The position numbers and the translations under genes are program-made. A stretch of DNA of 34,775 bases from an uncultured Candidatus Saccharibacteria bacterium (GTDB lineage Bacteria; Patescibacteriota; Minisyncoccia; UBA6257; GWB1-50-10), in NCBI GenBank assembly GCA_964362455.1, contig CAYIEJ010000001.1:1-34775 (forward strand). The letters run 5' to 3'. The notes under the pieces were generated by a model. That model was not told where the DNA came from. It saw only the letters and a list, made by a program, of their open reading frames with translations, and ran no database searches. Below are positions 1,968 through 20,062 of the stretch, piece by piece. Numbering within the stretch: the first letter of the stretch is position 1; each line of letters begins with the position of its first letter.

Positions 1968-2852
1968 TTAGGGATTGGGACTTTTTGTTATTTTTATTGC
2001 TCGCAATTTTGCGGAACGAGCTCGTGGATTTTCTATAATTTCTTCTCGAGTTGGTGAAATCGGTTTTTTTGTGAGTAAAGTCACTTGGTTATTTTTTGCT
2101 AAATTGCGGAATGCGTTTTTTACTATTCTGTCTTCCAATGAATGAAAAGATATAATTACTACTCGTCCCTCCGGACGCATTATATTTGGGATTTGGTCTA
2201 AGAGTGTTTTGAGGTTTTCCAATTCCCTGTTTACAAAAATTCGTATTGCTAAAAATGTTCTTGTTGCGGGATGGATGCGGCCGCGTTCGTAATTTATCGG
2301 CACCGCAGCTTTGATGACTTCAGATAATTTTCCGCTTGTCGCGATTGGCAGATTTTTCTTTATGGCTTTTGCGATTCTCGCCGCAAACCGTTCTTCGCCG
2401 AATTCTTTAATGATTTGCGTAAGTTTTTCTTCGTTTAAATCTTTTAGCCACTCATAAGCCGGCTTTTCGTTTATATCGTAGGTCATAAGCAGCGCTTCAT
2501 CACGGAGAAAACTGAAGCCCCGTTGCGATTTTTCTATTTGGTCTGAAGAAAAACCCAAATCGAGGAGCAGGCCATCGGCTTTCGGTAGGCCGTTTCTTTT
2601 TAGAATTTCTGGCAGATCGGCGTAATTACCCCGAATCAAAATTAAATTTTTTTGATTCTTTGTCTGCTTTTCATAATTTATTATCGCCCCCTCGTCTCGA
2701 TCAACTCCTAAAAAAATTCCATTCGGTTTTATACGCTCGATTATTTTTTTTGCGTGGCCCGCATTGCCCAAAGTGCCGTCAATGAAAAATTCTCCGGACC
2801 CTGGTTTTAAAATTTCTATTGTTTCTTTTAAAAGAACTGGAATGTGCGTCAT
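1968..2852 (-). CDS. rsmH: 16S rRNA (cytosine1402-N4)-methyltransferase RsmH/MraW
   Basis: 294 aa with SAM-binding DGTLGNAGHA and the hallmark ISFHSLEDRIVK motif. Lies directly downstream of mraZ. Confidence 0.93.
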   Translation of the reverse strand: MTHIPVLLKETIEILKPGSGEFFIDGTLGNAGHAKKIIERIKPNGIFLGVDRDEGAIINYEKQTKNQKNLILIRGNYADLPEILKRNGLPKADGLLLDLGFSSDQIEKSQRGFSFLRDEALLMTYDINEKPAYEWLKDLNEEKLTQIIKEFGEERFAARIAKAIKKNLPIATSGKLSEVIKAAVPINYERGRIHPATRTFLAIRIFVNRELENLKTLLDQIPNIMRPEGRVVIISFHSLEDRIVKNAFRNLAKNNQVTLLTKKPISPTREEIIENPRARSAKLRAIKITKSPNP

Positions 2853-2940
2853 TGGAGATTTATCGAGATTCGCTCCGCGAGATTCCGTAGTGATTATTCG
2901 TAATATAATTGAATCTCCATTTGTATTTCAATTTGAATAT

Positions 2941-3372
2941 CTAAATTCCGAGCTCTGATAATTTTTCCGCTATTTCATCTGAAGCAGTTTCTGTTTTGAT
3001 TTTGTAGTGTTTCCATGTTTCGCTTTCCCAGATTTCAATACGGTTATAAAGACCAGCGACAATCACCTCTTTTTTTAAATCAGCATATTTTCGCAGGTAA
3101 TCAGGAATCAATATGCGGCCCTGGGCATCTAATTCAACATCCATTGCGCCGGCAAGCATCAGTCGTCCAAAGGCGCGGGCATCGGCCTGGGCAATCGGTA
3201 AGGCAATCAGTTTTTGGGCCAGGGTTTCCCAGTCTTTTAAATCAAAAATAAACAAACAATGATCTAATCCTTTGGTAATAATGGCGCCGGCGTTTAGTTT
3301 TGTTCTAAATTTTGCCGGTATTGCCATTCGACCTTTGGCATCCAAATTGTGATGATATTCACCTAAAAACAT
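2941..3372 (-). CDS. mraZ: Transcriptional regulator MraZ
   Basis: 143 aa with two MraZ/SpoVT-AbrB repeats carrying DxxxR motifs (LDAKGRMAIP, LDAQGRILIP). First gene of the dcw cluster. Confidence 0.93.
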   Translation of the reverse strand: MFLGEYHHNLDAKGRMAIPAKFRTKLNAGAIITKGLDHCLFIFDLKDWETLAQKLIALPIAQADARAFGRLMLAGAMDVELDAQGRILIPDYLRKYADLKKEVIVAGLYNRIEIWESETWKHYKIKTETASDEIAEKLSELGI

Positions 3373-3378
3373 TTTTTG

Positions 3379-3450
3379 GTTATCCCCAGAATTGATGGCT
3401 TATCCCCATAGTTATCCACAATTCCCTACTTAACATTTAGAATACCCCAC
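3379..3450 (-). promoter_or_regulatory. Putative MraZ operator: direct repeats of a TGGGGATAA-type box upstream of mraZ
   Basis: Read on the minus strand: GTGGGGTATT (3450-3441), TGTGGATAAC (3420-3411), TGGGGATAAG (3408-3399), TGGGGATAAC (3388-3379). The last box ends 6 nt before the mraZ ATG. MraZ is known to bind tandem GTGGG-containing repeats in its own promoter. A TTGACA lies at 3466-3461. Confidence 0.55.
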
Positions 3451-3564
3451 CTAGCTTTTTTGTCAAAATTAAAAAACCGACATATTTTTACCTGCCGATT
3501 CTTAAAAAGTTATTTATTTATGCGGATAATCGATTTATTGTCTTTGGAATTATTAACAGATTAT

Positions 3565-3984
3565 TCACTCTTTAAAAAGTGGTTTATCGTTTTCTTTTTT
3601 ATCCAATTCAAGACAGACCGAGTTTATGCAGTAGCGTTTTCCGGTCGGTTCTGGGCCATCATCAAAAACATGTCCTAAGTGAGCGCCGCAGCGTTGGCAT
3701 TTAACTTCGGTTCTTTTCATATTATGACTTTCATCTGATTCGGTTTCAATATTTTCATGAGTGAAGGGTTTAAAAAAACTTGGCCAGCCGGTGCCTGAAT
3801 CAAATTTTGTTTCAGACGAGAAGAGTTCATTACCGCAAGCGGTACATTTGTAGACGCCCTTTTCTTTGGTTTTATAATATTTACCAGAAAATGGGGGTTC
3901 AGTTCCCTTTTCGCGCATCACTTTATATTGATCTGGGGCAAGCTCTTTTTTCCATTCTTCTTCGTTTTTTATAACTTTAGCCAT
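3565..3984 (-). CDS. msrB: Peptide-methionine (R)-S-oxide reductase MsrB
   Basis: 139 aa with two CxxC zinc pairs (CTACGNE, CQRCGAH) and the catalytic RYCINS motif. Confidence 0.92.
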
Positions 3985-4377: not shown

Positions 4378-5481
4378 TCACGGTTTTAGGAGTTTTAAAG
4401 CGGCAATTTCCTTGGCTGTTTCTCGTGAGTATTTATTTTCTTTACCGGCTTTTTCCAGAACTTTTTGCACGCTTGTTGAGATTTTTTCGTTTATTAATTT
4501 AAACATCTCTTTTTCGCCATAGCCACAATGCTCGGCGTAGGAAGAGATGACGCCGCCGGCATTCGCGACAATATCGGGGACAACCAATATTCCTCTATCC
4601 TCAAGTTGGCGTTCGATGTGTTCGCGCATCGGGATATTGGCCCCTTCGACGATTATTTTCGTTTTGATGTCATTGACGTTGTTTTCGTTAATTACATCCG
4701 GAAGGGCGGCTGGGATTAAAATATCTACGTCAAGTTCAAAAATTTTTTGGCCAATTAACTTTTGAGCATTCTTATAAGCCGTAACGCTCCCCCCAGATTT
4801 TTTAGCCGCCACTACTTCCTCATAATTTAAACCGTTGGAGTCGTATATTGCGCCACTGGAATCCGAAACTGAAACAATCTTTGCGTCCGCTTCTGATAAA
4901 AATTTAAATACGAATGTTCCGACATTGCCAAAACCCTCGATTGCGACCGCAGCGCTTTTTATGTTTAGGCCAAAAAATTTTGCGGCGATTTTCGCGGCTT
5001 CGGCTATACCGTAGCCAGTGCTTCCCAGTTCATGGGGAAGGCCGCCGAGGCTTTTGGGTTTTCCGGTGGCTGCTTTTTGATTTCCGGCGACGGCAACAAA
5101 CTGAGCCATTTCAATTTCGGTGGTATTTACATCTGGACCGGCTATATAATGTTTAATTAAAAAAGGTTTAAGTTGATAAGCAAACCATTGAATAATTTCT
5201 TGTTTTTCGGCTGGCGTGTGATTTTTTGGGTCAAAAGCGATGCCGGATTTGGCGCCGCCGAAAGGAATATCTGCCAATGCGTTTTTGTAAGTCATTGCTC
5301 TTGCGAGCCGCGCCACTTCGTTTTCCGTTACATTAGGCGTCATTCTTATCCCGCCTTTGCCCGGTCCGAGAGTAAGGTTGTCTATCACCAAATATGCCCA
5401 AGTGCCATATTTATGATTGAGAGTTTTAAAAATATATTCCGGACCCAGCGAATCGCCTTTAAGCAAGATGTCATTTTCCAT
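4378..5481 (-). CDS. Glu/Leu/Phe/Val-family amino-acid dehydrogenase (short GDH-like)
   Basis: 367 aa with the catalytic-lysine motif GPGKGGIRM, the AxxMTYKNA region and a Rossmann GFGNVG dinucleotide motif. Substrate cannot be decided from sequence alone. Confidence 0.85.
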   Translation of the reverse strand: MENDILLKGDSLGPEYIFKTLNHKYGTWAYLVIDNLTLGPGKGGIRMTPNVTENEVARLARAMTYKNALADIPFGGAKSGIAFDPKNHTPAEKQEIIQWFAYQLKPFLIKHYIAGPDVNTTEIEMAQFVAVAGNQKAATGKPKSLGGLPHELGSTGYGIAEAAKIAAKFFGLNIKSAAVAIEGFGNVGTFVFKFLSEADAKIVSVSDSSGAIYDSNGLNYEEVVAAKKSGGSVTAYKNAQKLIGQKIFELDVDILIPAALPDVINENNVNDIKTKIIVEGANIPMREHIERQLEDRGILVVPDIVANAGGVISSYAEHCGYGEKEMFKLINEKISTSVQKVLEKAGKENKYSRETAKEIAALKLLKP

Positions 5482-7429: not shown

Positions 7430-7456
7430 AGAGATAGATTGGTTTTATTCGCAATG

Positions 7457-7528
7457 TGGGCGCACGAGGAATCGAACCTCGACTCTTCGCAATGTGAATG
7501 CGACGTTTTACCATTAAACCATGCGCCC
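7457..7528 (-). tRNA. tRNA-Val (anticodon CAC), no encoded CCA
   Basis: Hand-folded cloverleaf. Acceptor GGGCGCA/TGCGCCC, D arm GTTT-AATGGTA-AAAC, anticodon arm TCGCA-TTCACAT-TGCGA, T arm CGAGG-TTCGATT-CCTCG, discriminator A. Confidence 0.88.
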
Positions 7529-10123: not shown

Positions 10124-11788
10124 CTAAAACGGAAGATTCATTATTGGTTTTTTTATTGGCGGTGGAGAATAATCAGTGACACTAATAGTAATAATTTCTG
10201 AATCAGAGCCGCCGCGGCCGTCTGTTGCGTTAAACGTAACGTTATACTGGCCAGAATCGCTATAGGTTGGCCGCCATCTGAAAATGCCTGTTTGCGCGTC
10301 AAATGAGAACTGGCTTGGCAGAACACTTACGGCATCAGTGGAATAAGTCAGTGTATCGCCGTTTCCATCAGTGGCGCTTAAATCAATCGTAAGCCATTGC
10401 GCTTCTTGCGTTGATTTATTTCCGATAGAAGCCATAACTGGCGCGATGTTTGTAGTAAGAGCGTTATAGGCATTGATACGGCCACCTTCAATTGCCGGGA
10501 AACCCGTGACTGGATCAGAAGTGTCAATCAATGCTTGTCTTATTTGACTTGCTGCAAGCACCGCGTTTGGTCTCGAAAGCATTAAACCGATAACGCCGGC
10601 AACAATTGGGGTGGAAAAAGAAGTACCGCTTCCACCGACGTAACTGTTATTTAAATAAGGCATAGAGATTCCATCTCCTGGTGCGGCAACATCAACCCAA
10701 GTTCCATAATTCGAGAAACTTGTTTTAGTGTCGGTCCAATCGGTAGCCGCAACCGCTATTACCTCATTATGGGCTGCTGGGTATACATAAGTTGAATTAT
10801 TATAATTACCAGCCGCAGCGATTAAAACGGCGCCGGCATTATATGCATCGGTTACGCCTTGTAGTAAGAGAGAATAATTGCTTGTAAAAGCCGCACTTAC
10901 TAAAATAACATCCGAGAAATTAGGGTTTTCTGGAATGCCCACCATTCCTGTGGGATTATTGACAGCAAATTCAAGTGCTGAGTAAACAGCACTTAGACTC
11001 ATGGCACCTTGACCGGTGGTACCACGCCAGCCGGCTTTAATCGGTAAAATCATACAGTTGGGACAAGTACCCGCTATTCCTAAACCATTGTTAGTTGCGG
11101 CACCAGCAATGCCGGCGACTCCGGTACCATGGCCGTAATCATCTTCTGGAGTAAAATCGTTATAAAGCGCGTCCCACCCCGGCAAAAGTTTTCCCACTAA
11201 ATCTTCGTGTGTCGATTCTACGCCAGTATCAATTATGGCGATTACTGTGGAAGAATTGCCGGTTTCAATATCCAAAGCTTCGGGTGCATCAATATCAGCA
11301 TCTGGTGTCCACCCCTCTGCTTGGCCGGTATTATGAAGACCCCACTGTGTTGTGAAATATGGATCCTCCGGCATCATTGCGAGAACGCCAATAAAATTTG
11401 GTTCAGCAATAAAGACAAACGGATTATTTTTTACTGAATCGGCAACAAGTTGTGGGTCGGTTTTTTCGTCAAACTTTAAAGTTAGAAATCTCTTACCGTG
11501 GGGCGAAATGCTTTTTTCAAGATTATTATTATGGAGTTTTTCAACAGAATCAATGGAAACCGGACTTGATGCTTTGATTGAAGATATTAATTCTTCGTCG
11601 CTTAAATTGCTTTCACGTGTTAAAACCAAAAGTTCGCCCGGCACAAATGGATTTTCATTTATTTGGATTTGAGGCGGCAAAATTTGGAGCGGCGCCGCTT
11701 GAATAGGAGTAGTAATTAAAACGATTAAAAGAATAGGAATTATTCCGAGAAAAACCGGGCTTTGTTTAATCTGTTTAAACCTGCCCAT
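10124..11788 (-). CDS. Secreted subtilisin-family (S8) serine protease with a C-terminal Ig/cadherin-like domain
   Basis: 554 aa with a signal peptide (...TTPIQA/AP). Asp-His-Ser triad contexts are IAIIDTGV, HGTGVAGIAG and GTSFSTPIVAG. C-terminal module: DGNGDTLTYS...NATDGRGGSD. Confidence 0.88.
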   Translation of the reverse strand: MGRFKQIKQSPVFLGIIPILLIVLITTPIQAAPLQILPPQIQINENPFVPGELLVLTRESNLSDEELISSIKASSPVSIDSVEKLHNNNLEKSISPHGKRFLTLKFDEKTDPQLVADSVKNNPFVFIAEPNFIGVLAMMPEDPYFTTQWGLHNTGQAEGWTPDADIDAPEALDIETGNSSTVIAIIDTGVESTHEDLVGKLLPGWDALYNDFTPEDDYGHGTGVAGIAGAATNNGLGIAGTCPNCMILPIKAGWRGTTGQGAMSLSAVYSALEFAVNNPTGMVGIPENPNFSDVILVSAAFTSNYSLLLQGVTDAYNAGAVLIAAAGNYNNSTYVYPAAHNEVIAVAATDWTDTKTSFSNYGTWVDVAAPGDGISMPYLNNSYVGGSGTSFSTPIVAGVIGLMLSRPNAVLAASQIRQALIDTSDPVTGFPAIEGGRINAYNALTTNIAPVMASIGNKSTQEAQWLTIDLSATDGNGDTLTYSTDAVSVLPSQFSFDAQTGIFRWRPTYSDSGQYNVTFNATDGRGGSDSEIITISVTDYSPPPIKKPIMNLPF

Positions 11789-11861
11789 CTTAATATTCCA
11801 TCATACTCCTTTTCGACTCTTTGTCAAGGGCCAGGGTGTGCACAATTCAGTTAGGCAAACC

Positions 11862-11893
11862 AAGCAATTTTATCGCGGTTTTCTCCATGTTTT
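11862..11893. repeat. Copy A of a 32-nt imperfect direct repeat (partner at 13724..13755)
   Basis: aagcaattttatcgcggttttctccatgtttt versus aagtaattttatcgcggttttcgctatgtttt gives 29/32 identity. Both copies also have taggcaa upstream (11852-11858 and 13696-13702). Confidence 0.8.
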
Positions 11894-11931
11894 CTGTCGC
11901 ACTGAAGTTCAACTTCTACAAGTTCTATTCT

Positions 11932-12453
11932 TTAGAACTTATTGTTTTGGGAGTTTTTTCTCTTTAATCCTTTTTCTAATTTATTATTTATTTTCTGTGA
12001 GTACTTCTCGAGCGGATTAAGACCAACCTTTTTTCTTCGGCTGTTAATCATCTTTTTATCTTTAATCGGAAACAACTCGAGTTTCTGCCCAACTCGTCTG
12101 AACTGTGTTCCGTATAATTGCCTGCCTTCTCGTTTGATAAGAATCCTATCAGTCAGAAAGGCCTCATCTTTTTTACTGAAGCAGCACCTTTTGAGACAAG
12201 CTTTTTGAAGTTCAATGTCAAAATCTTGATGCTGAATTAATAACCAAAAATTGTGCAACCCCCCCTTTCCTATAAGTTTCAAATTAGGATAGCCGTATAG
12301 TTCTATTATTTTTTTTATTCGATAATTATGAACCCAATCAATAGCATAAATTAAAAAATTTATTGGGCCCCGCCCTCGTTTTGCCTGCCCCCGCAAATCT
12401 TGATCAACTTTATACATTTCGTTGATCTGTTTTGCTAAAGTTTTATTTATCAT
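11932..12453 (-). CDS. Hypothetical protein (173 aa, basic C-terminus)
   Basis: Clean ORF with no motif I can assign. It starts immediately after the terminator of the ATP-grasp gene. Confidence 0.55.
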   Translation of the reverse strand: MINKTLAKQINEMYKVDQDLRGQAKRGRGPINFLIYAIDWVHNYRIKKIIELYGYPNLKLIGKGGLHNFWLLIQHQDFDIELQKACLKRCCFSKKDEAFLTDRILIKREGRQLYGTQFRRVGQKLELFPIKDKKMINSRRKKVGLNPLEKYSQKINNKLEKGLKRKNSQNNKF

Positions 12454-12454
12454 G

Positions 12455-12488
12455 AAATATAAAAGGGAATAGAAGAATCTCTATTCCC
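12455..12488 (-). terminator. Rho-independent terminator closing the graspetide mini-operon
   Basis: Perfect 9-bp stem GGGAATAGA/TCTATTCCC (12465-12473 / 12480-12488) with a 6-nt loop, followed on the minus strand by UUUUAUAUUU. Confidence 0.75.
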
Positions 12489-12497
12489 ATTCTAATA

Positions 12498-13460
12498 TCA
12501 AATGAGTAGATCTGCAATTGCTTTAGCGATTTCCATGTTGGTCCGTAGTTGTACAAAATACCATTGACCGTTTGGATTAACCTCTAAAAATATATATTCA
12601 CCTGAAGGGGTCACAATCATATCAATGCACCCATATTTAAGCTCCATCTTTTTCATAAAGGAGAAAATTTTACTTACAACCTCTTCGGGCAATACCGTCG
12701 GTTCCATTTTTACATCAAAGTCATTAAGCTTTGGTTTTCTCCGCCAATCGACCGCCGTTTCTTCGTCTTGCTGCGAGAGAATTTTCACGGGGAAAATTCT
12801 ATCACCAACTACAGTAATTCTGAGCTCATAACCTTTAGGAATGTTTGCCTGAAATATCGAGGGCGAAAATCTAACAGAATCTATATTATCCATCTGTTCC
12901 GGTTTTACCCGATTTGTATAAACTACGTGGTCAAGAATCGGACTAGCGGCAAATAACTTAACTATAATATCTCGCGAGTGTGTCTCAAAAAAATCCCGTA
13001 CTTGATCGGGACTAGACGTAATAAGCGTATTAGGGACCGTAAATCCGCATTCCACGGCAACACAAAGTTGATAAATTTTATTTTCAGCCGCAAACGCCGT
13101 CCAAGAATCATTTATCCATTTTTTATGGGAGAGTAGGGTCCAGAGTGCGCGCCCCATTTCATCAAACTGACGATGGATAAACTGTCGATGTTCTGCTGGT
13201 TCATATTGTAGTAGTTCTCTAGGTAAATGCGGATGCATATACCACACAGTAGAGAAGATATCTGTATCGTATTTGACGTTATCTATCACTACGAAATATC
13301 GCGGCTTGCCGTCAATAACTTCAAAAGTGAGGTAATCGTCTTCCAAGCATTTATCTTGTTTAAAAAGTATAGCATTTTCGCCGCGCCTGCCGAGTTCTTC
13401 TAAAACCAATTTGAATGCCGCTACCTCATAAGAACCAGAATTTCCGATTGCAAGTATCAT
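12498..13460 (-). CDS. ATP-grasp peptide ligase of the graspetide/microviridin type (MdnC/MvdD-like omega-ester macrocyclase)
   Basis: About 320 aa. Blocks resemble MdnC as I recall it: FSPSIFQANIPKGYELRITVVGDRIF, AVDWRRK, YGCIDMIVTPSGEYIFLEVNPNGQW. The ATG at 13460 has AAAGGAG 6 nt upstream, so I prefer it to the track start at 13466. Confidence 0.85.
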   Translation of the reverse strand: MILAIGNSGSYEVAAFKLVLEELGRRGENAILFKQDKCLEDDYLTFEVIDGKPRYFVVIDNVKYDTDIFSTVWYMHPHLPRELLQYEPAEHRQFIHRQFDEMGRALWTLLSHKKWINDSWTAFAAENKIYQLCVAVECGFTVPNTLITSSPDQVRDFFETHSRDIIVKLFAASPILDHVVYTNRVKPEQMDNIDSVRFSPSIFQANIPKGYELRITVVGDRIFPVKILSQQDEETAVDWRRKPKLNDFDVKMEPTVLPEEVVSKIFSFMKKMELKYGCIDMIVTPSGEYIFLEVNPNGQWYFVQLRTNMEIAKAIADLLI

Positions 13461-13501
13461 CGTCATCTCCTTTCAGTGTGCTTTGCCGAATCCCAATTAT
13501 T

Positions 13502-13530
13502 AAGGGGGAGAAAATGAGTTTCTCCCCCTT
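13502..13530 (-). promoter_or_regulatory. Strong intercistronic hairpin between the precursor and ATP-grasp genes
   Basis: Perfect 12-bp stem AAGGGGGAGAAA/TTTCTCCCCCTT with a 5-nt loop. There is no clear U-tract after it on the minus strand. Confidence 0.7.
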
Positions 13531-13541
13531 AGACCTCACTT

Positions 13542-13643
13542 TCAGGCGCTGTCGTAACAATCGATGTCATCGTAGGTGCCTGTAGTCGTGGGAGAAAACG
13601 CACCTTCCCGCTTTTCCAAGAAATGTAGGATAAACGGCACCAT
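13542..13643 (-). CDS. Graspetide precursor peptide (33 aa), absent from the ORF track
   Basis: Hand translation gives MVPFILHFLEKREGAFSPTTTGTYDDIDCYDSA. A purine-rich SD (AAGGAAGGGGGTGA) lies about 10 nt upstream. The leader has a PFxxxFL motif like the microviridin PFFARFL recognition motif. The core is rich in Thr/Ser donors and Asp acceptors. It lies directly upstream of the ATP-grasp gene on the same strand. Confidence 0.8.
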   Translation of the reverse strand: MVPFILHFLEKREGAFSPTTTGTYDDIDCYDSA

Positions 13644-13723
13644 TTGTGTTACTCACCCCCTTCCTTATTGGGTTTTCGAGGTTCTGCGATAAAGGTAGGC
13701 AATCCTTTGCTATTTGTCAAATT

Positions 13724-13755
13724 AAGTAATTTTATCGCGGTTTTCGCTATGTTTT
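13724..13755. repeat. Copy B of the 32-nt imperfect direct repeat (partner at 11862..11893)
   Basis: See copy A. It lies 81-112 nt upstream of the precursor ATG on the minus strand. Copy A lies 74-105 nt upstream of the S8 protease ATG. Confidence 0.8.
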
Positions 13756-13784
13756 TTAGTTTTTATTATCTACAATTGTGTTAT

Positions 13785-14594
13785 ATGAAGCGGTTTCGTT
13801 GTATTATCCCAAAATTAGAAACCCGGAATTCGCGTGAGATTTTTATGCTCTTCTCTGCTATGAATTTAATGGGTTACAACGAAGAAAATAATCCTCGCGG
13901 CATGTCAGATGAAAGAAAACGTGTGAGAAATGTTCTGCGTGCATATGACTGGCGGAATAAATATCCGCGCCTCGCTAGTGTTATCAAAAAACATCACCCA
14001 TGGTATCTCGTGCGATGGATACTTTTAAAAGATAAACGCCTTTCTGATTTAGAAAGGTTTGCGCAAGAAAAAGATGTCCAAAAGCAGTGGAATGAATTAA
14101 AGATACGTTTCAAACAAAAGACAAAAAAAATTGCCACCATATTTGAAAGAGAGACGAATCGACTTATAACTTTTATTGGCACGCCGCCGAAGCAACTCAA
14201 GAAAATTATACTTATCGTCAATCCCCTTGATGCTTATTGGCGAGGATACGCTTTTAACATTAAGGGTACCGGTTATATCATTGTCGGTCCTGAAGCCGAG
14301 AAAAATGGTGGCCGACTTATCAGACATGAACTTTTGCATCTTTTTACGCCCACAATTCAAATTTCTAAAAACATAATTGTCGATCAACGCCATAGACGTT
14401 TAATTGCTCAAGGATATGGCAGTAATAGTGCCATCAAAAATGAATATGTGGTTCGTAGTTTAAATCTCCTTTACCAAAGAGGGATATTAAAAAAGAATAT
14501 CTCGCAAGCCATTAAAAATGAAGAAAATGACTTCCCTCACATTAGGAAAGTTATGCAGATTATTATGGTGAAATTAAAGCGGGGCGTCCGGTAA
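13785..14594 (+). CDS. Hypothetical HExxH protein (putative zinc metallopeptidase), HELLH
   Basis: The ORF contains GGRLIRHELLHLF. I prefer the ATG at 13785 (MKRFRC...). The track start at 13644 is a TTG that would overlap the divergent precursor gene and its upstream region. Confidence 0.6.
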   Translation: MKRFRCIIPKLETRNSREIFMLFSAMNLMGYNEENNPRGMSDERKRVRNVLRAYDWRNKYPRLASVIKKHHPWYLVRWILLKDKRLSDLERFAQEKDVQKQWNELKIRFKQKTKKIATIFERETNRLITFIGTPPKQLKKIILIVNPLDAYWRGYAFNIKGTGYIIVGPEAEKNGGRLIRHELLHLFTPTIQISKNIIVDQRHRRLIAQGYGSNSAIKNEYVVRSLNLLYQRGILKKNISQAIKNEENDFPHIRKVMQIIMVKLKRGVR

Positions 14595-14629
14595 TTCATA
14601 AAAATATTTTCAGGGCAGATTTTAATGAA

Positions 14630-14833
14630 TTGGATAGCGAATTTTTCAGTAAAGTAGTCAATCCTTTACTTACCATTTCTGTTATCAATGATGTTGCGAG
14701 GAGTTGTGGTAGATTACGAGAGATTGAAATTTTAAAGGAAATTGAACGATTCTGGACTGAAGGCAAAAATATTTTTATTGTGTATGGTCAAACACACGCT
14801 GTGATTCAAGAGCCGGTCTTAAAAACATTGTAA
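14630..14833 (+). CDS. Doubtful small ORF or gene fragment (67 aa, TTG start only)
   Basis: The frame is open from 14546 with no ATG and no recognisable RBS. It may be a remnant of a larger gene. Confidence 0.25.
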   Translation: MDSEFFSKVVNPLLTISVINDVARSCGRLREIEILKEIERFWTEGKNIFIVYGQTHAVIQEPVLKTL

Positions 14834-14889
14834 AAGATTATATAAGATTTCAGATTATTTGAGTGTATGGAACCTTTTAATAATTCAAA

Positions 14890-15369
14890 GTGAAAAAGAG
14901 TTATAAAAAAATAGTAAATACTTTTAGAAAGGTAGTTTGTACGCTCAATCGAATAGGAGTTGAACCAGTGATTTATGGATCGTTGGGCTTGCATCTTCTG
15001 ACTGGTAAAAATGTAAAAATAAATGATATCGATTTTCTTCTTCAAGATTCTGATTTCGACCGGAAATGGGATGATATAAAAACAATTCTAGAAGCAGATT
15101 ACTGCAAACTAGATCCGAAACATAAACAAGAATTTAAGTGCCAGGATTTGTTTGTATCTTTTTTGAAGATTAAAGACGTTTCGCAACTTACCAAAATTAA
15201 TTTTTCAAGATTGAAAAAGTATAGATATGGCGGAGGAATATATCGTAATTTAAACCCGAAACAATATTTAGATTTTTATGAAAAAAGATCTAAAAAAAGG
15301 AATAATTCAAAAATAAAAAGGAAAAAGGATTTAGAGAAAATTGAATTAATTAAAAATTATTTGAGCTAA
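14890..15369 (+). CDS. Nucleotidyltransferase-fold protein (Lnu/aminoglycoside-NTase-like minimal NTase)
   Basis: 159 aa with a GTG start. The segment VEPVIYGSLGLHLLTGKNVKINDIDFLL matches the GS...DxD pattern of pol-beta-superfamily NTases. Size is similar to lincosamide nucleotidyltransferases. Confidence 0.5.
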   Translation: MKKSYKKIVNTFRKVVCTLNRIGVEPVIYGSLGLHLLTGKNVKINDIDFLLQDSDFDRKWDDIKTILEADYCKLDPKHKQEFKCQDLFVSFLKIKDVSQLTKINFSRLKKYRYGGGIYRNLNPKQYLDFYEKRSKKRNNSKIKRKKDLEKIELIKNYLS

Positions 15370-15412
15370 TAATCAGCAAATTATCAAATTTTGCTATATA
15401 ATTAAACGATCC

Positions 15413-16057
15413 ATGCTTTATAAGCTAAATCTGAACGAGATCAGAGATAAGTCTATTGAAAGAACCTTTCGTGAATCAATGAAAGAGTTCAGTAAATTTT
15501 ATGGCATCAACTGGATAAAAAACACGCCAAAAATTATCTTTCTTCAAAATAGAAAATCAATTAATTTATTACGCGGTCAGAAAACCGAACCGTGGCTAGT
15601 TGGCTGGGCTAATGACAAAACGCGAATAATTTTTATTCTGGACCGAGATAATTTTGAAAAAGAAAGTTGCCATAAATATTCTAAGGAACGCTATTCCGTT
15701 TTAATTAAACACGAGCTTAGTCATTTATTTTATTATATACTTTCCGGCGCTATGTACACTCCAAAATGGTTGGTTGAGGGTGTGGCAATTTTTACCGCTG
15801 GTCAAAATAAATTTAAGAAAAAGCCTGATAAATTCAAAAGTTTCTTGGCATTTGATGACAAGGCCACCCCTGGAGTATATGCGGAATCAGGTTTCGTTAT
15901 TGAAACGCTAGTTAAAAAATTCGGTAAAAATAAATTAATAAAGTTAATTAAATCGTTGCGAGACGTATCTAACAAAGAGCAATTTAATAAAATTTTCCAA
16001 AAAATTTATGGGTTTAAAATGGGTTATGAAGTCATGAATAAATATTATAAAAGTTAA
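15413..16057 (+). CDS. Peptidase MA-like gluzincin (HELSH ... EG), putative zinc metallopeptidase
   Basis: 214 aa. VLIKHELSHLFYYILSGAMYTPKWLVEGVAIF gives HExxH plus a downstream Glu in an EGxA context, typical of Peptidase_MA_2-like domains. Confidence 0.65.
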   Translation: MLYKLNLNEIRDKSIERTFRESMKEFSKFYGINWIKNTPKIIFLQNRKSINLLRGQKTEPWLVGWANDKTRIIFILDRDNFEKESCHKYSKERYSVLIKHELSHLFYYILSGAMYTPKWLVEGVAIFTAGQNKFKKKPDKFKSFLAFDDKATPGVYAESGFVIETLVKKFGKNKLIKLIKSLRDVSNKEQFNKIFQKIYGFKMGYEVMNKYYKS

Positions 16058-16076
16058 TTTCAAACCAGATTAATAT

Positions 16077-16547
16077 TTATTCATTTTTTAGAATCTTTAG
16101 AATCGTATTAACTACAAACTCCTTTTGTAAATGTTCGATATTATACTTTTTGATAAATGGTTCAAGCATTATATGGATCATTTCGTGCATAATAGTATTT
16201 ATTGCATCGAGGTGAGTGTTAAGGTTAATAGTAACAGTATTATTACTCGCGTTATAAAAACCGAGCGGTCCATAATTTGAAATCTCAACAGTAAATTTGG
16301 TTTCTCCCGGTTCGTGAAAAAAGACAGATAGTCGTTCTGTAAACCCCCGTTCTCTCTTGGCCCACTCTATTTCAATCCATTTTTTGTAACTTTCATATTT
16401 TTTCGTATCGTATTCCTCTTCCACGGTTTGTTGAGGCCAGGTGAATTTTATTTTGTTGGTTTTTAAAAACTCCATGTTCCTTCGAACCATATCAAAAATA
16501 TCTTTTTCTCGTTTAATGGAACAAATGATAAATTTTACGTTTGGCAT
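16077..16547 (-). CDS. SprT-like / minimal zincin HExxH protein (HEMIH)
   Basis: 156 aa. NNTVTINLNTHLDAINTIMHEMIHIMLEP resembles the SprT/WLM-type strand, helix and HExxH arrangement. Confidence 0.55.
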   Translation of the reverse strand: MPNVKFIICSIKREKDIFDMVRRNMEFLKTNKIKFTWPQQTVEEEYDTKKYESYKKWIEIEWAKRERGFTERLSVFFHEPGETKFTVEISNYGPLGFYNASNNTVTINLNTHLDAINTIMHEMIHIMLEPFIKKYNIEHLQKEFVVNTILKILKNE

Positions 16548-16581
16548 ATTAATAATTATTCTAAATTAATAGAAAAATATA

Positions 16582-16633
16582 AAGGCGGAGAGAAGTGATT
16601 CTCCCCGCCTTAGCGGACGAAACGATCCGCTAC
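16582..16633 (-). terminator. Tandem hairpins: orphaned terminator downstream of the dnaJ 3' remnant
   Basis: Minus strand shows UAGCGGA-(8)-UCCGCUA (7 bp), then AAGGCGGGGAGAA-(4)-UUCUCUCCGCCUU (13 bp including one G-U), followed by UAUAUUUUU. The second stem is fully paired only on the minus-strand transcript. Confidence 0.7.
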
Positions 16634-16638
16634 GCATT

Positions 16639-16680
16639 TTACAGTTCTTTATCTAAATCTTCCAAGAGTTTTTTGGCTTT
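16639..16680 (-). pseudogene. dnaJ: Remnant of a dnaJ 3' end (last 13 codons plus stop)
   Basis: 39/42 nt identical to 20084..20125. It encodes [13 protein letters not shown], the same as the live dnaJ. An in-frame TAA sits immediately upstream, so it is not part of a functional gene. Confidence 0.8.
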
Positions 16681-16776
16681 GTCTTACGAAGTCCGACTTC
16701 ATAAAATCAGTCCTTCCGCTTTTTATCCGATCGTTTTCTTTCTATCATTGGCGAGTTAATGAATTATTTCCAAAAA

Positions 16777-16805
16777 TTCACAATTTTATTTTAGCCTGCT
16801 ATAAT
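16777..16805 (+). promoter_or_regulatory. Sigma70-like promoter TTCACA-17-TATAAT giving a leaderless mRNA
   Basis: The -10 TATAAT at 16800-16805 ends 6 nt before the ATG at 16812. There is no SD, and no alternative downstream Met lies near the N-terminus. Confidence 0.55.
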
Positions 16806-16811
16806 AGTTAT

Positions 16812-17702
16812 ATGCATTTATCAATAAAAATTTCTCGCCTATCTAATTTTTTATTTTTTATTCAAAAAACAGATGGATATAATTTAATTAACTCTGATTT
16901 ACGAAAATGTTTATCAGATGAAAAATTCAGTCTGTCTTTTTATGGAAAAAGCAAAAATAAAATTTGGAGACAAATTGAAAAAACAATCGGAAAAGAAAAC
17001 GCAAAACAAGTAAAAAAATCTATCGTTTCGCTGGAGCCAGTCTTTACTTTGTATTGGCGTAAAACATCCGAGCATTTACTTTCATGGAAGCGGTATTTTC
17101 AAAATAATCAGTTATTATTTCAACATATTATTCTTGAGGTAAAGAAATTAAGCGGAATAAAACATTCGGCAGCTTCTAACATTCCGATTTATTTTGTTTC
17201 TGATCCCGTGAGTAATGATAAAGAAATTAACGCGTGGTTTTCTTGGACGCCAAAAGAAAGTTTTATAATCGTTGAAATTCCGTTTAGCCTTAAGACGTCT
17301 AATCACTTTTTCCCGCTGGCTGTTTTAGCGCATGAATTTTTCCATTTAATGTTGAGAAAAAATAAAAATCTACTTTTAAAAATTATTAAAATTACCAAAG
17401 AAAACGACAAATTATTTACAGAGCTAGCAGAAGGTATGCCAAATAGAATATTCCTGGAAGAATTATTAATCAGTTCATTTATTCCGGAGGGTTATTTAAG
17501 CGAGAAGTATTTCAACGCGAAAATTATTTCTCATATTTTAAAACCAAAAAGTTTATTAACGTGGCGAAAGTTTGTCGCGTTTAAATTAAGACGGACGACA
17601 AAAGCATATATTGATAATCTTCAGTGTATTGATGAAAAATACCTTAAAGATTTAATAAAAGTTATCAAAGAAAATACAAAAAATAGCCCCTCCAGAGTTT
17701 AG
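16812..17702 (+). CDS. Hypothetical HExxH protein (putative zinc metallopeptidase), HEFFH
   Basis: 296 aa containing FPLAVLAHEFFHLMLRKN with a downstream ELAEG. Very AT-rich. Confidence 0.6.
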   Translation: MHLSIKISRLSNFLFFIQKTDGYNLINSDLRKCLSDEKFSLSFYGKSKNKIWRQIEKTIGKENAKQVKKSIVSLEPVFTLYWRKTSEHLLSWKRYFQNNQLLFQHIILEVKKLSGIKHSAASNIPIYFVSDPVSNDKEINAWFSWTPKESFIIVEIPFSLKTSNHFFPLAVLAHEFFHLMLRKNKNLLLKIIKITKENDKLFTELAEGMPNRIFLEELLISSFIPEGYLSEKYFNAKIISHILKPKSLLTWRKFVAFKLRRTTKAYIDNLQCIDEKYLKDLIKVIKENTKNSPSRV

Positions 17703-17719
17703 TCTGAAAGGGGCTTTTG
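17685..17719. terminator. Bidirectional terminator shared by the HEFFH gene and the WDK peptide gene
   Basis: AGCCCCT...AGGGGCT (17685-17691 / 17709-17715) with inner CAGA/TCTG pairing. T-runs follow on both strands. It overlaps the stop codon of 16812..17702. Confidence 0.65.
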
Positions 17720-17734: not shown

Positions 17735-17902
17735 TTACTTTCTGTTTGCCCAGTGGCCCTTATCCCAAGGACCTTTGTCCCAAGCCTTGTCCCAGAGTTT
17801 CTCTTTGCCTGAAGTCTGCATAGCAGCTTCTTTTTTTGCCTGAAGCAAAACCCGTGGAACGGGATTAGGATTTGCCTTTATGGCAGGAGTGTTATTCAGC
17901 AT
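17735..17902 (-). CDS. RiPP precursor candidate with a C-terminal (WDK)x3-WAN repeat core (55 aa), absent from the ORF track
   Basis: Hand translation gives MLNNTPAIKANPNPVPRVLLQAKKEAAMQTSGKEKLWDKAWDKGPWDKGHWANRK. GGAGG lies 8 nt upstream of the ATG. It sits 42 nt downstream of the rSAM/SPASM gene on the same strand and is followed by a terminator. The three WDK units use different codons (GAC/GAT, AAG/AAA), so the repeat is conserved at the peptide level. Confidence 0.75.
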   Translation of the reverse strand: MLNNTPAIKANPNPVPRVLLQAKKEAAMQTSGKEKLWDKAWDKGPWDKGHWANRK

Positions 17903-17944
17903 GGTTTTCACCTCCTTTCGCTGAGTGGTTTGTTTTACTTTTGG

Positions 17945-19039
17945 CTACACAAGACCATACGATCTTATTTTAGCCGAAACATGCTCAAAGTATCTCCTGA
18001 GACTTCTACAGATCTCGTCTATTGGCTCAACTGCATCGACTTGCTCATAGCAGTCCTTTGCGCAACCTCCTTTGCAGATTAAATACCAATTACATGTTTT
18101 ACAACGTTCTTTCCTCTTTCTCAGTAGCTCTCGAAAACTTTGCAAACATGAATTGGATCTAACCACCGCTGATTCATCCAGTACGTTGCCAAAGCGTAGA
18201 GCGTCTGTCTTTGGAAAAGAATCGCAACCGTAAATTGAGCCGTCGGAATAGACAGTGACGAATTGATCGCATTGTCCCATGTAGATGCATTCACGTTTAT
18301 TCCCGCCGAGAATCAAATTAACAACACTTTGAATGTCTCGGATTTCAACTTCCGGATCATCTAGCTCTAGCCAGCGATCGAAGATGGCGATCATGAAATT
18401 GGTGTATTGTGCTGGTGAAATTACCAGTGACGATACATTGTTGCAATGACCGATATTCTTCACTCTGGCAAACTTTAACTTTTTTATGTTCTCCGTAATA
18501 AAAAAGTTGAAAACTTCTTCTGGGAATCTATGATTGACAGTGCTTACACCGCAGATAACCCCGTTGAAGATTTCGGCCTGGCGCAATAAATCAATGCCTT
18601 TCATAACCTCATCGTGCGACCCTCTGCTGGTAGAGTAGTGGCGAACTTGATCGTGTAATTCCTTCGGTCCATCAAGACTCACGCCGACGAGGAAATCGTT
18701 TTCGGAGAAGAAGCGTGCCCATTCTGAAGTAATGAGAGTGGCATTTGTTTGAAGAAAATTGGCTATCTTCTTTCCTTGTTGTTTCCATTGGCATTGAAGT
18801 TCCACTACCTCGCGGTAAAATTCTAGTCCGGCAAGTAGCGGCTCTCCTCCATGCCAAATGAACTCAACATCGTCCTGATCGCGACAGAAGAAATCAATCA
18901 TCGCCTTCAATACTTCGGGGCGCATACGATTTCTGACGATATATTCTTTGAGCCCGGAAGTATAACAATACGAGCAGGACAAATTGCACGTCCCGTTGAC
19001 TGGCTTGACAATTGGAGTCGAGACTGACTGGTAAAACAT
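17945..19039 (-). CDS. Radical SAM enzyme with a C-terminal SPASM domain (peptide-modifying maturase candidate)
   Basis: CNLSCSYCY (CxxxCxxC), GGEPLLAG, and auxiliary-cluster cysteines CIYMGQC...GC and CKTCNWYLICKGGCAKDC (the CxxCxxxxxCxxxC SPASM signature). The ATG at 19039 has AAGGAGG 8 nt upstream, so I prefer it to the GTG at 19048. Confidence 0.88.
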   Translation of the reverse strand: MFYQSVSTPIVKPVNGTCNLSCSYCYTSGLKEYIVRNRMRPEVLKAMIDFFCRDQDDVEFIWHGGEPLLAGLEFYREVVELQCQWKQQGKKIANFLQTNATLITSEWARFFSENDFLVGVSLDGPKELHDQVRHYSTSRGSHDEVMKGIDLLRQAEIFNGVICGVSTVNHRFPEEVFNFFITENIKKLKFARVKNIGHCNNVSSLVISPAQYTNFMIAIFDRWLELDDPEVEIRDIQSVVNLILGGNKRECIYMGQCDQFVTVYSDGSIYGCDSFPKTDALRFGNVLDESAVVRSNSCLQSFRELLRKRKERCKTCNWYLICKGGCAKDCYEQVDAVEPIDEICRSLRRYFEHVSAKIRSYGLV

Positions 19040-19112
19040 TGCAATCACCTCCTTATCTGAACGTTGTAAAAGAACGCTCTAGAAAATCACTATGATTTTT
19101 TTTACTGTACTT

Positions 19113-19141
19113 AATATAATTCACTATCAATTATTTGTCAA
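19113..19141 (-). promoter_or_regulatory. Sigma70-like promoter TTGACA-17-TATATT for the rSAM/peptide operon
   Basis: Minus strand reads TTGACA (19141-19136), a 17-nt spacer, then TATATT (19118-19113). It lies 14 nt from the left end of the IS. Confidence 0.5.
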
Positions 19142-19155
19142 GATTGTATCATGGT

Positions 19156-20062
19156 TCAATAGCTTGTAATCACCTGATAGCGTATGTACATGACATATTC
19201 AAACAATCCCAATCTCCCTCGTGTGAGACGCGAGGCAGTAAACTTCGTCCTTCGAGGATATAGCACAAGAGAGGCCGCAAGACATTTCGGATACAGCCAA
19301 GGAGCAATCGTTAAGTGGTTGAAACGAGCTCCGGCGAATCGAAGAACGCTCATTCAAACTCTTTCCTCAAAACCTCATCATCATCCGAATGAAATTGATA
19401 AGGAGATCGTGTATCGGATTCTCGAATTGAGACATGAGCGCAATGAATGCGCTGAAATCATCCATCACAAATTGAAGAAAGAAAAAATCATTGTCTCCCT
19501 TTCCTCTGTAAAAAGAGCTTTGAAGCGTCATGGGCTCATCTATCCCTCCAAATGGAAGAAATGGCACAAGTATCCGCCAAAACCAATACCGGAGAGACCA
19601 GGCGTACTCATACAAATTGATTCAATGCGAGAAGGCGTGCCCCAAGAATGCCTTCACGCGTATGCTTTGATTGATGTTTGCTCAAGATGGGGGTATGTCG
19701 AGGCCACAGAGAAAATTTCAACTCATTTGAATGCCCACTTTCTTCAAAAAGCTCAGAAGAAGTCTCCTTTCACATTTCAAACCATTCAATCAGATCATGG
19801 CCAAGAATTCTCAAAATGGTTCACGAAGAAATGTTTGAATTGCGGTTTTGCTCATCGCCATTCAAGAGTGAGGACACCAACAGATAATGCTCATGTGGAA
19901 AGATTCATTCAAACTTTTCAGAAACAATGTCTGAATCGTGTGCCTCGTTCAATCAATGCTTGGAGGAAGGAAATTCCTGATTTCCTTAAATGGTACAATA
20001 CTGAAAGGCCGCATATGGCATTGGGGATGAAAACGCCAGCCGAAGTGATTACAAGCTATTGA
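19156..20062 (+). mobile_element. IS481-like insertion sequence (907 bp, single rve-type DDE transposase)
   Basis: Perfect 18-bp terminal inverted repeats: TCAATAGCTTGTAATCAC at 19156-19173 and its reverse complement at 20045-20062. A single ORF fills the element and its stop codon lies inside the right IR. Confidence 0.8.
19184..20062 (+). CDS. DDE transposase (HTH plus integrase-core rve domain)
   Basis: 292 aa. DDE contexts are VLIQIDSM, IQSDHGQEF and DNAHVERF. Also carries the characteristic YNTERPHMALGMKTPAEV tail. Confidence 0.88.
   Translation: MYMTYSNNPNLPRVRREAVNFVLRGYSTREAARHFGYSQGAIVKWLKRAPANRRTLIQTLSSKPHHHPNEIDKEIVYRILELRHERNECAEIIHHKLKKEKIIVSLSSVKRALKRHGLIYPSKWKKWHKYPPKPIPERPGVLIQIDSMREGVPQECLHAYALIDVCSRWGYVEATEKISTHLNAHFLQKAQKKSPFTFQTIQSDHGQEFSKWFTKKCLNCGFAHRHSRVRTPTDNAHVERFIQTFQKQCLNRVPRSINAWRKEIPDFLKWYNTERPHMALGMKTPAEVITSY

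Follow-up and report, generated by a model that had tools for sequence, protein, structure and literature searches.

A three-gene cassette of a radical SAM/SPASM enzyme, a small peptide and an HExxH protein typical of Patescibacteria

Does the radical S-adenosylmethionine (rSAM)/SPASM gene on a contig of an uncultured Candidatus Saccharibacteria bacterium (assembly GCA_964362455.1, contig CAYIEJ010000001.1, positions 1 to 34,775; the whole 34,775-nt stretch is called the window below) work together with the 55-residue open reading frame (ORF) that follows it, and if so, on which part of that peptide would it act? An earlier note on this DNA had proposed that the two encode a ribosomally synthesised peptide that is modified after translation (RiPP) and its maturase, with a repeated W-D-K unit as the site of cross-linking. 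We found that the pair belongs to a self-contained three-gene cassette, probably of a RiPP, that is typical of Patescibacteria, the third member being a convergent gene for an HExxH protein. Judged from the alignments, the conserved unit of the peptide is its C-terminal decapeptide, WDKGHWANRK, and not a WDK repeat.

The locus and its conserved peptide

The cassette and the elements around it are laid out in the window as follows.

19184..20062, plus strand: IS481-family transposase, directly upstream of the promoter-like site of the rSAM gene (NF033577, 193 bits, cut-off 224)
19113..19141, minus strand: promoter-like site upstream of the rSAM gene (TTGACA, 17-nt spacer, TATATT), a consensus match only, at 11 of 12 positions
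17945..19039, minus strand: rSAM/SPASM gene, 364 aa from ATG, with an alternative GTG start at 19048, its own GGAGG Shine-Dalgarno sequence and its stop codon at 17945..17947
17903..17944, minus strand: intergenic spacer of 42 nt, holding a GGAGG Shine-Dalgarno sequence 8 nt ahead of the precursor ATG
17735..17902, minus strand: precursor peptide gene, 55 aa plus stop, translated as MLNNTPAIKANPNPVPRVLLQAKKEAAMQTSGKEKLWDKAWDKGPWDKGHWANRK
17825..17860, minus strand: leader motif VPRVLLQAKKEA, presumably the recognition element (family consensus [VI]PKVLLQAKKEA)
17774..17794, minus strand: two non-conserved W-D-K units (W37-K39 and W41-K43), optional extras
17738..17773, minus strand: conserved core GPWDKGHWANRK, whose decapeptide W46-K55 ends at the stop codon
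17687..17712: terminator-like GC-rich hairpin with a 10-bp stem and T runs on both strands, common to the precursor gene and the convergent HExxH gene and covering the final 16 nt of the HExxH ORF
16812..17702, plus strand: convergent gene for the HExxH protein, 296 aa, with HEFFH at 17331..17345 and an invariant Glu-Glu pair at 17457..17462

The position and translation that had been given for the small ORF, 42 nt past the rSAM/SPASM gene, were reproduced, as were the GGAGG 8 nt before its ATG and the terminator after its stop (hairpin 17712..17687). The promoter-like site and the terminator-like hairpin frame the rSAM and precursor genes as a two-gene transcription unit. The translated Shine-Dalgarno region, KEVKTM, was seen again ahead of the start in most related loci. 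The small ORF had been described as missed by gene calling; it is indeed unannotated in the ORF track of the window, but the public collection already lists it as a protein call without a name (P0001; ncbi, ena).

Conservation of the arrangement was determined from two directions, and related loci are labelled L001 and onwards below. A metagenome scan anchored on the peptide with the pattern PWDKGHW gave 54 distinct loci, and a locus was counted as having room when the contig extended at least 1.2 kb upstream for the rSAM gene or at least 1 kb downstream for the HExxH gene. Of the 36 loci with room upstream, 33 have the rSAM gene directly upstream on the same strand, and of the 41 with room downstream, 40 have the convergent HExxH gene. 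The second scan was anchored on the enzyme (at least 46% identity, one genome per GTDB species). Here both the peptide and the HExxH gene were present in all 22 loci with room, with the precursor directly behind the rSAM gene in 21 of them, and the two loci without peptide and HExxH gene stop at a contig edge. Counted over the genome loci with room for it, the HExxH gene was present in 19 of 19. The earlier note had made its proposal depend on the peptide being kept beside homologous rSAM genes, and both scans bear this out. The gap between the rSAM gene and the precursor was 33-112 nt in nearly all loci and 130-330 nt at three decayed rSAM remnants. Homologues of the HExxH protein held the same position in every related locus that was opened.

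The genes flanking the triad vary from locus to locus (transposases, IF2, RecG, HSP20, L19), which indicates that the triad acts as a self-contained and probably mobile unit. L001 to L004 have an IS1595-type transposase on the same side of the cassette (3985..4755 in L001), and the adjacent IS481- and IS1595-type transposases together with the variable flanks suggest that the cassette moves. The loci carry the labels Ryan-, Wolfe-, Jorgensen-, Portnoy- and Kuenenbacteria, Paceibacterota, Minisyncoccia and 'Parcubacteria group'. Labels of Gammaproteobacteria, Heimdallarchaeota and Nanoarchaeota also occurred, on contigs of ~2-3 kb, and are probably binning noise.

Homologues of the peptide were searched for in a collection of 5.8 billion proteins. 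This gave 63 peptides of ~41-70 aa, nearly all of them unnamed and from metagenomes or metagenome-assembled genomes (MAGs) of Patescibacteria. In their alignment P16, L19, P45, W46, D47, G49, H50, W51 and R54 are invariant, and conservation is 90% or higher at V18, L20, A22, K23, K43, G44, K48, A52, N53 and K55. We then compared the codons of the tail in 59 distinct DNA versions extracted from all loci fetched. The pattern W-D-x-G-H-W-x-x-R is constant at the protein level in all 59, with both codons in use for Asp (GAT 28, GAC 31) and His (CAC 37, CAT 22), four for Gly (GGA 12, GGT 21, GGG 9, GGC 17) and six for Arg. Invariant residues written in freely varying synonymous codons indicate selection on the protein and not on the RNA or DNA. 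The stop codon stands right behind tail residue 10 in 57 of the 59 versions. Substitutions are rare: K48 to D, R or Q (one each), A52 to S (five), N53 to R (one), and K55 to R, Q or G. By its homologues and this pattern of codons, which go far beyond what chance would give, the 55-aa ORF is a real gene whose tail is under purifying selection at the protein level.

The three WDK units of the window's own precursor are written in different codons (tgg gac aag, tgg gac aaa, tgg gat aag), as had been noticed before. The repeat does not define the family, however. Among 61 distinct precursors 21 have no upstream WDK-type unit, 12 have one, 26 have two as in the window, and the two that remain have three or four extra units. 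The 21 with the terminal unit only comprise 18 with W[D/E/N]K and three with WDR, WDQ or WDD. In relatives the upstream Trp is changed to L, R or G, or deleted, and the shortest natural precursors are only 34-37 aa long, for example MRIPKVLIQAREEANTETARKKGPWDKGHWANRK from L126. Four aromatic-x-(Lys/Asn) triplets had been counted in the window's peptide; all four are present there, but only the last two are conserved. The family signature read from the alignment is a [VI]PKVLLQAKKEA leader, a variable spacer with 0-4 optional xW(D/E)K units and a fixed (G)PWDKGHWANRK. The invariant Gly-His inside this core had not been weighed before, and the convergent HExxH gene had been overlooked.

Aromatic-X-X motifs of the kind found in substrates of cyclophane-forming rSAM enzymes, which the earlier note had pointed to, lie inside the conserved core as WDK, HWA and WAN, next to a Lys...Trp motif, K-G-H-W. 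The third positions of these motifs vary only among residues with a beta-CH2 group (K/R/Q/D and N/R). As a beta-methylene is always kept there, this is a pattern that a cross-link at C-beta would tolerate.

Two contigs of higher GC content carry related tails in other surroundings. In L136 (764..1163, 55% GC) there is an ORF with a signal peptide and three CxxCH haem motifs. It is cytochrome-like, with NCBIfam matches to the cytochrome domain of a UshA-like selenoprotein and to cytochrome c-550 CycA, and it reaches the contig end as ...APEKGPWDKGHWAN, that is, with the cassette core motif EKGPWDKGHWAN. A chimeric assembly was considered for L136 and is probably not the explanation, since synonymous differences separate its DNA from that of every cassette locus. 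In L125 (14..313, 58% GC) a precursor-like ORF ends in ...QLPKVLQKAQEAATQESRGNGAPYVIAQAAEKAPWDKAPWDKGPWDKGHWANRK; no HExxH gene lies downstream, where a 387-aa protein with repeated CxxC...CKECKAEHDAKW units is found, and the upstream sequence is missing.

The enzyme and the chemistry it may carry out

The ORF upstream of the peptide had been read as an rSAM/SPASM enzyme, and both cysteine motifs are in place. The SAM-cluster motif CX3CX2C is formed by C18, C22 and C25, which align to C15, C19 and C22 of the anaerobic sulfatase-maturating enzyme (anSME) anSMEcpe, and the SPASM motif CX2CX5CX3C by C313, C316, C322 and C326, within CKTCNWYLICKGGC. Eight cysteines (C251, C257, C272, C326 and C313, C316, C322, C344) all align to cysteines of anSMEcpe that we take to be its eight auxiliary-cluster ligands. 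Across the family C22 and C25 do not vary, C18 is kept in at least 90% of the sequences, and each auxiliary cysteine is either invariant or conserved to at least 90%. The enzyme has a three-cluster rSAM/SPASM architecture. It scored 63 bits on PF04055 (cut-off 29.5) and stayed below threshold on the Pfam SPASM model. An RRE-type N-terminal domain (RRE, RiPP precursor recognition element) is absent, the rSAM motif beginning at residue 18. The AlphaFold2 (AF2) model (predicted local distance difference test, pLDDT, 90.8) gave TM-scores of 0.86 with anSMEcpe, 0.83-0.84 with the cyclophane synthase ChlB, 0.76 with CteB and 0.62 with SuiB.

Curated NCBIfam models ranked anSME first (TIGR03942, 285 bits, cut-off 349) and the dynobactin maturase DynA second (NF041298, 270 bits, cut-off 450), followed by GrrM/OscB (178 bits), DarW (178), YhhB (149), DarE (143), AmcB (141), FxsB (137) and XyeB (94). 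The enzyme could then be a sulfatase maturase whose sulfatase is encoded elsewhere, with the small ORF as an unrelated neighbour. In line with this, anSME is the best match in sequence as well as in structure: residues 10-356 align to anSMEcpe by phmmer at E = 5e-58 and 33% identity, its top PDB match; the Cys residues of all three clusters are conserved in comparison with the anSME group (anSMEcpe, AtsB); and the pair C272-D273 aligns to anSMEcpe C276-D277. However, the score is well below the cut-off, and the genuine DynA of Photorhabdus australis, which reaches 609 bits on its own model, is nearly equal on the anSME model (257 bits), so that the top rank of anSME carries little weight. When 50 enzymes from the genome scan were placed in a neighbour-joining tree, those of Patescibacteria fell into one clade (bootstrap 100/100) outside both the DynA-containing and the Bacteroidota anSME-like clades. 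Among the ORFs of 110 aa or more in the 34.8-kb window none has a sulfatase domain, in agreement with the earlier observation that none is nearby. The peptide lacks the Cys/Ser-x-Pro/Ala-x-Arg target, has neither Cys nor Ser in its core and is present in every genome with room. We give the sulfatase-maturase explanation almost no credence, and the earlier expectation that the enzyme would stand apart from the sulfatase maturases holds.

Outside the clade its nearest relatives, at 30-34% identity, are DynA, enzymes of Bacteroidota and some from actinobacteria and alphaproteobacteria; DynA of P. australis is among the nearest non-Patescibacteria relatives, at 32-33%. By these comparisons the enzyme is distinct from the sulfatase maturases and from DynA, and about equally distant from both. 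XyeB, StrB and WgkB had been named as enzymes to compare it with, but the closest characterised peptide maturase by curated model is DynA. A reading in anti-phage defence was dropped, the sole match being generic rSAM similarity to pVip (47 bits).

DynA and the Patescibacteria enzyme are alike in size, in architecture and in having no N-terminal extension. The dynobactin loci that we fetched have the rSAM gene followed by a precursor of 55-75 aa (59 aa in P. australis), the same order as here, and the dynobactin core WNSNVHSYRF makes up the last ten residues of its precursor, in parallel with the cassette. Both ten-residue cores start with Trp, have Arg at position 9 and end the protein, and two separate aromatic cross-link sites are plausible in the cassette core too. 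In dynobactin the bonds run from Trp1 C6 to Asn4 C-beta, closing a four-residue ring, and from His6 N to Tyr8 C-beta (PMC11002830). The differences are as clear. The cassette enzyme scores 270 bits against a cut-off of 450 and the 609 of genuine DynA and falls into a separate clade, its hosts are Patescibacteria and not Enterobacterales, the dynobactin loci inspected lack the HExxH partner, and the cassette core ends in Arg-Lys without an aromatic residue. A C-terminal aromatic residue lets the dynobactin and darobactin cores mimic the beta-signal that BamA recognises. As the cassette core ends in Arg-Lys, a target in common with dynobactin and darobactin is not implied. A likeness of the leader to dynobactin precursors (K-[AV]-L-[IL]), seen by eye, was without statistical support.

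The cassette also resembles the triceptide systems (XyeB, GrrM/OscB, FxsB, YhhB, HaaB, ChlB), in whose products a C(sp2)-C(sp3) bond joins the aromatic ring of the first residue of a motif to C-beta of the third. Their enzymes have an anSME-like fold without RRE, like the cassette enzyme, and ChlB binds its substrate leader without one, by the title of PDB entry 9gm3. In both, an rSAM/SPASM gene adjoins a precursor with aromatic-X-X motifs, the number of motif units varies, as is typical of triceptides, and an HExxH protein is at hand, an association common in the class (PMC12636437). Unlike them, the cassette enzyme scores far below all the family cut-offs, the core is a single fixed decapeptide instead of a repeat array, and the HExxH partner has no match to the alpha-ketoglutarate (alpha-KG)-HExxH model. 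The best reading, by analogy, is a new family of rSAM-cross-linked RiPPs arranged like the dynobactin and triceptide systems.

On this evidence we consider it probable that the cassette makes an rSAM-modified RiPP with the modification inside the decapeptide; a specific topology of one W46-K48 and one W51-N53 cyclophane is put forward tentatively, at somewhat less than an even chance. The rSAM/SPASM enzyme, with its anSME/ChlB fold and no RRE, would bind the 55-aa precursor by the [VI]PKVLLQAKKEA motif of its N-terminal leader. SAM would be cleaved reductively, and the 5'-deoxyadenosyl radical would take a side-chain hydrogen in the decapeptide, most plausibly from C-beta. The substrate radical would then add to an aromatic ring (Trp or His), with two auxiliary [4Fe-4S] clusters accepting the electron, and each such event would close a small macrocycle between side chains and lower the mass by 2 Da. 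One or two rings would arise in the decapeptide, the likeliest products being two three-residue rings, W46-K48 and W51-N53 (or H50-A52), and the precursor of the window could gain up to two extra rings on its optional upstream WDK units. Finally, the HExxH metalloprotein would act, either to remove the leader as a zincin-type peptidase or to hydroxylate the invariant Asp or His as an Fe/alpha-KG enzyme.

The same peptide could instead undergo other chemistry than three-residue Trp cyclophanes: a streptide-like K48-W51 link, a dynobactin-like bond from His N to C-beta (H50 to A52), a Trp-Trp or ether bridge, epimerisation or modification of the C-terminus. Two simple W-X-X rings leave the invariant G49-H50 and the fixed C-terminus (57/59) unexplained, and K48 can be D, R or Q, so that a Lys-specific reaction is not required. 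Precedents with His are known: the His-Tyr C-N link of dynobactin beside its four-residue Trp-Asn ring, the His C2 to Ala C-beta bond made by HaaB, and the use of Tyr or His by YhhB and others (PMC11002830). Trp and Lys side chains are cross-linked by the rSAM/SPASM enzymes of darobactin, streptide and WGK peptides, and W-x-K occurs in darobactin as in the cassette; in darobactin Trp C6 is joined to Lys C-beta across W3-S4-K5 (PMC10125368). DarE, however, matches at 143 bits only and has an N-terminal extension of ~80 residues (profile match from position 81). The spacing K48-G-H-W51 is also like that of Lys and Trp in the streptide core, KGDGW. The StrB/SuiB-type enzymes of streptide and WGK systems (StrB, SuiB, WgkB) carry an N-terminal PqqD-like RRE, which is lacking in the cassette enzyme with its rSAM motif at residue 18, and the TM-score with SuiB is 0.62 against 0.86 for anSME and 0.83-0.84 for ChlB. 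In three lineages K48 has given way to D, R or Q, which speaks against an obligatory Lys-Trp link. Taken together, we regard these other chemistries as unlikely.

The HExxH protein and loci with a damaged enzyme gene

The HExxH family comprised 166 close matches (219 representatives at 50% clustering), with H174, E175, H178, E216, E217, a WFSW strand and a PEGY motif invariant. In the AF2 model (pLDDT 89) a three-stranded sheet (126-157) is followed by a helix (167-183) with HEFFH and a helix (211-221) with E216-E217, and this predicted order of strands and helices is that of zincins, in which HExxH lies on an active-site helix beside a beta-sheet and a Glu on a later helix is the third ligand. 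No signal peptide or obvious membrane segment was found. No significant match was found in Pfam, NCBIfam or PADLOC, nor among PDB sequences searched with the single sequence and with a profile. The weak Foldseek matches were mostly to metallopeptidases (MMP-11, E = 0.66 in the PDB; leishmanolysin; then phage peptidases, at best 0.04, M34, SprT and IrrE), and Pfam matches below threshold, including those of distant members, fell at the motif (SprT-like, M48, PhageMetallopep); nearly all of these weak matches are to zincins. The family appears unclassified.

Like the alpha-KG-HExxH hydroxylases (ChlH, BpmH, PflC, PesO) and zincin leader peptidases, the partner protein has an HExxH motif, which is invariant in its family. 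The alpha-KG-HExxH class has a zincin-like fold and frequently occurs next to cyclophane rSAM enzymes or fused to them, and its known targets are Asp and His (PMC12636437, PMC13060819), both of which are invariant in the cassette core. In the account of PMC12636437, which cites Morishita et al. 2024, HExxH partners hydroxylate Asp and His on a pre-formed cyclophane. In contrast to these groups, the cassette protein has no significant family, peptidase or PDB match. By analogy it may be a leader peptidase or an Fe/alpha-KG HExxH-type hydroxylase, both of which are plausible.

The HExxH partner is the last of four HExxH proteins in a row in the window (13644..17702), a region with a GC content of 0.30-0.35 as compared to 0.40-0.47 elsewhere. 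The other three are:

13644..14594: HExxH protein with HELLH, weak match to DUF4932
15413..16057: HExxH protein with HELSH, Peptidase_MA_2
16077..16547, minus strand: HExxH protein with HEMIH

Among the four, only that at 16812..17702 is conserved beside the peptide in other genomes. That it might be a paralogue of the other three was tested with hhalign, and nothing was found beyond the motif.

Several observations weigh against a cross-linked RiPP. None of the curated family cut-offs in NCBIfam was reached by the enzyme. By hhalign, homology of the precursor to dynobactin precursors had a probability of 0.2%, the layout alone being in common. We infer that the enzyme acts on the adjacent peptide, and the type and position of the cross-link are argued from the chemistry of analogous systems; likewise we infer the role of the HExxH protein and the biological function of the product. 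For the HExxH protein, Foldseek against the PDB and a viral library gave no significant fold match, not one of 42 family members matched the alpha-KG-HExxH model (TIGR04267, IPR026337) with E relaxed to 5, and no peptidase family matched above threshold. A transporter, an immunity gene or a recognisable protease family is not conserved in the cassette. The cores of antibiotic RiPPs usually diversify, and this one is nearly invariant. Finally, the rSAM gene is disrupted or lost in ~10 of 42 loci with room.

These damaged loci are of several kinds. L005 has a TAG at W62 (5049..5051), the Trp of WHGGEP, with GGEP also changed to GGEL. L009 has a stop at codon 80 of the rSAM gene and L021 a C-terminal frameshift; the N-terminus is missing or shifted in L017, L103 and L110; remnants are left in L094 and L119; and L097 and L137 have deletions. 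Among the ~10 loci the full peptide ORF is intact except in L137, where the core alone survives, fused to an rSAM remnant (...HWHGGKHLLAGLEFYRKAVEIQHTWEKQDPWDKGHWANRK), and the HExxH gene is intact except in L097. L126 (4193..5515) and L137 (4514..5746) are without a cognate rSAM gene and have an unrelated rSAM/SPASM gene just past the HExxH gene, encoding a TIGR04463/Clo7bot/CefB-like protein of 440 aa and a PapB-like protein of 410 aa, respectively. These could be non-orthologous replacements or belong to neighbouring RiPP loci. In L027 the cognate rSAM gene itself sits past the HExxH gene.

Unless they are MAG errors, such losses beside an intact pair hint at frequent decay or at a role independent of the enzyme. 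The functional pair might then be the peptide and the HExxH protein, as a protease with its substrate or inhibitor or as an unmodified small basic peptide, the rSAM enzyme being dispensable or having another target. The loci reported with peptide and HExxH gene intact and the rSAM gene broken or gone (L005, L009, L017, L021, L103, L110, L094, L119, L126 and L137) favour this, and so does the slightly more faithful co-occurrence of the HExxH gene with the peptide (40/41, as compared to 33/36 for the rSAM gene). However, 30 of the 42 loci with room have an intact rSAM gene, tightly spaced and on the same strand as the peptide, and in the window the two share one promoter-like site and one terminator. 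All 22 of the rSAM-anchored species genomes with room have the peptide, some of the disruptions may be assembly or sequencing errors in MAGs or recent decay, and a second rSAM copy elsewhere in such genomes is possible. We judge a pair that does without the enzyme to be very unlikely, and prefer the rSAM-modified RiPP.

Even where the enzymes share no more than 42-47% identity, the core varies less than the leader does. This pattern is unusual for antibiotic RiPPs and closer to that of cofactor or signal peptides. The product might be a fixed decapeptide with two cross-links and perhaps a hydroxylation, which has a single conserved molecular partner across Patescibacteria, and not a diversifying antibiotic. 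It could be a signal or an adhesion or recognition factor of the episymbiotic lifestyle, or a redox or metal-binding cofactor derived from the peptide, in the manner of pyrroloquinoline quinone (PQQ), mycofactocin or the quinohemoprotein gamma subunit. We think this unlikely; it is kept open by the conservation of core over leader, the lack of a conserved transporter, the invariant His, Asp and Trp, and the occurrence of EKGPWDKGHWAN in the cytochrome-like ORF of L136.

Other loci and the meaning of the cassette

A second candidate RiPP locus lies in the same window, at 10124..13643 on the minus strand, and a single RNA gene was found:

13542..13643, minus strand: 33-aa ORF MVPFILHFLEKREGAFSPTTTGTYDDIDCYDSA, 75 nt upstream of the ATP-grasp maturase gene
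12498..13466, minus strand: ATP-grasp maturase (NCBIfam MvdC 221 bits, SAV_5884 210, MvdD 198, all below cut-off)
11932..12453, minus strand: DUF6624 protein, behind the maturase gene
10124..11788, minus strand: secreted S8 subtilase, behind the DUF6624 protein
7456..7528, minus strand: tRNA-Val (anticodon CAC), the sole RNA gene found in the window

The tail of the 33-aa ORF, Thr-rich and then Asp-rich, resembles the core of a graspetide. Housekeeping genes make up the rest of the window: penicillin-binding proteins, MraW/MraZ, L10, L7/L12, DnaK/DnaJ/GrpE, seryl-tRNA synthetase, a synthetase of lysyl-/asparaginyl-tRNA type, GreA and alanine racemase. On the 117-kb digester contig L001 another rSAM gene stands beside the cassette (2618..3765, minus strand). 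A Cys-rich ORF of 50 aa, MKRDWSKFQPKAVVASPEKQNRTNMGRPCCGGSCIGGNCKAVPKIAAAFK, comes before it, and the two are one more candidate for a RiPP pair, again in a genome that looks like one of Patescibacteria.

The literature was searched with supplementary tables and subscription journals outside the scope. Within it the core fragments WDKGHW, GHWANR and KGHWAN were not found, nor was a report linking SPASM enzymes to Patescibacteria, nor any description of the family, which agrees with the earlier supposition that it was undescribed. None of the curated models names the peptide or the HExxH protein. As an architecture of rSAM/SPASM enzyme, precursor and metalloprotein is standard for its class, we rate the cassette as a new family within a well-known class.

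For RiPP chemistry the cassette offers a compact trio: an enzyme of 364 aa placed between dynobactin synthase and the sulfatase maturases, a substrate of 34-55 aa and an unclassified HExxH protein. The trio could yield a new cross-link pattern on a W-D-K-G-H-W-A-N scaffold together with a new family of HExxH enzymes, and it would be of antibiotic interest if the product resembled dynobactin beyond its layout. The genomes of Patescibacteria are tiny, and hardly any secondary metabolism is known from these bacteria. That the cassette is kept in many of their lineages with a near-frozen core points to a molecule that would be relevant to the interaction of these episymbionts with their hosts or neighbours.

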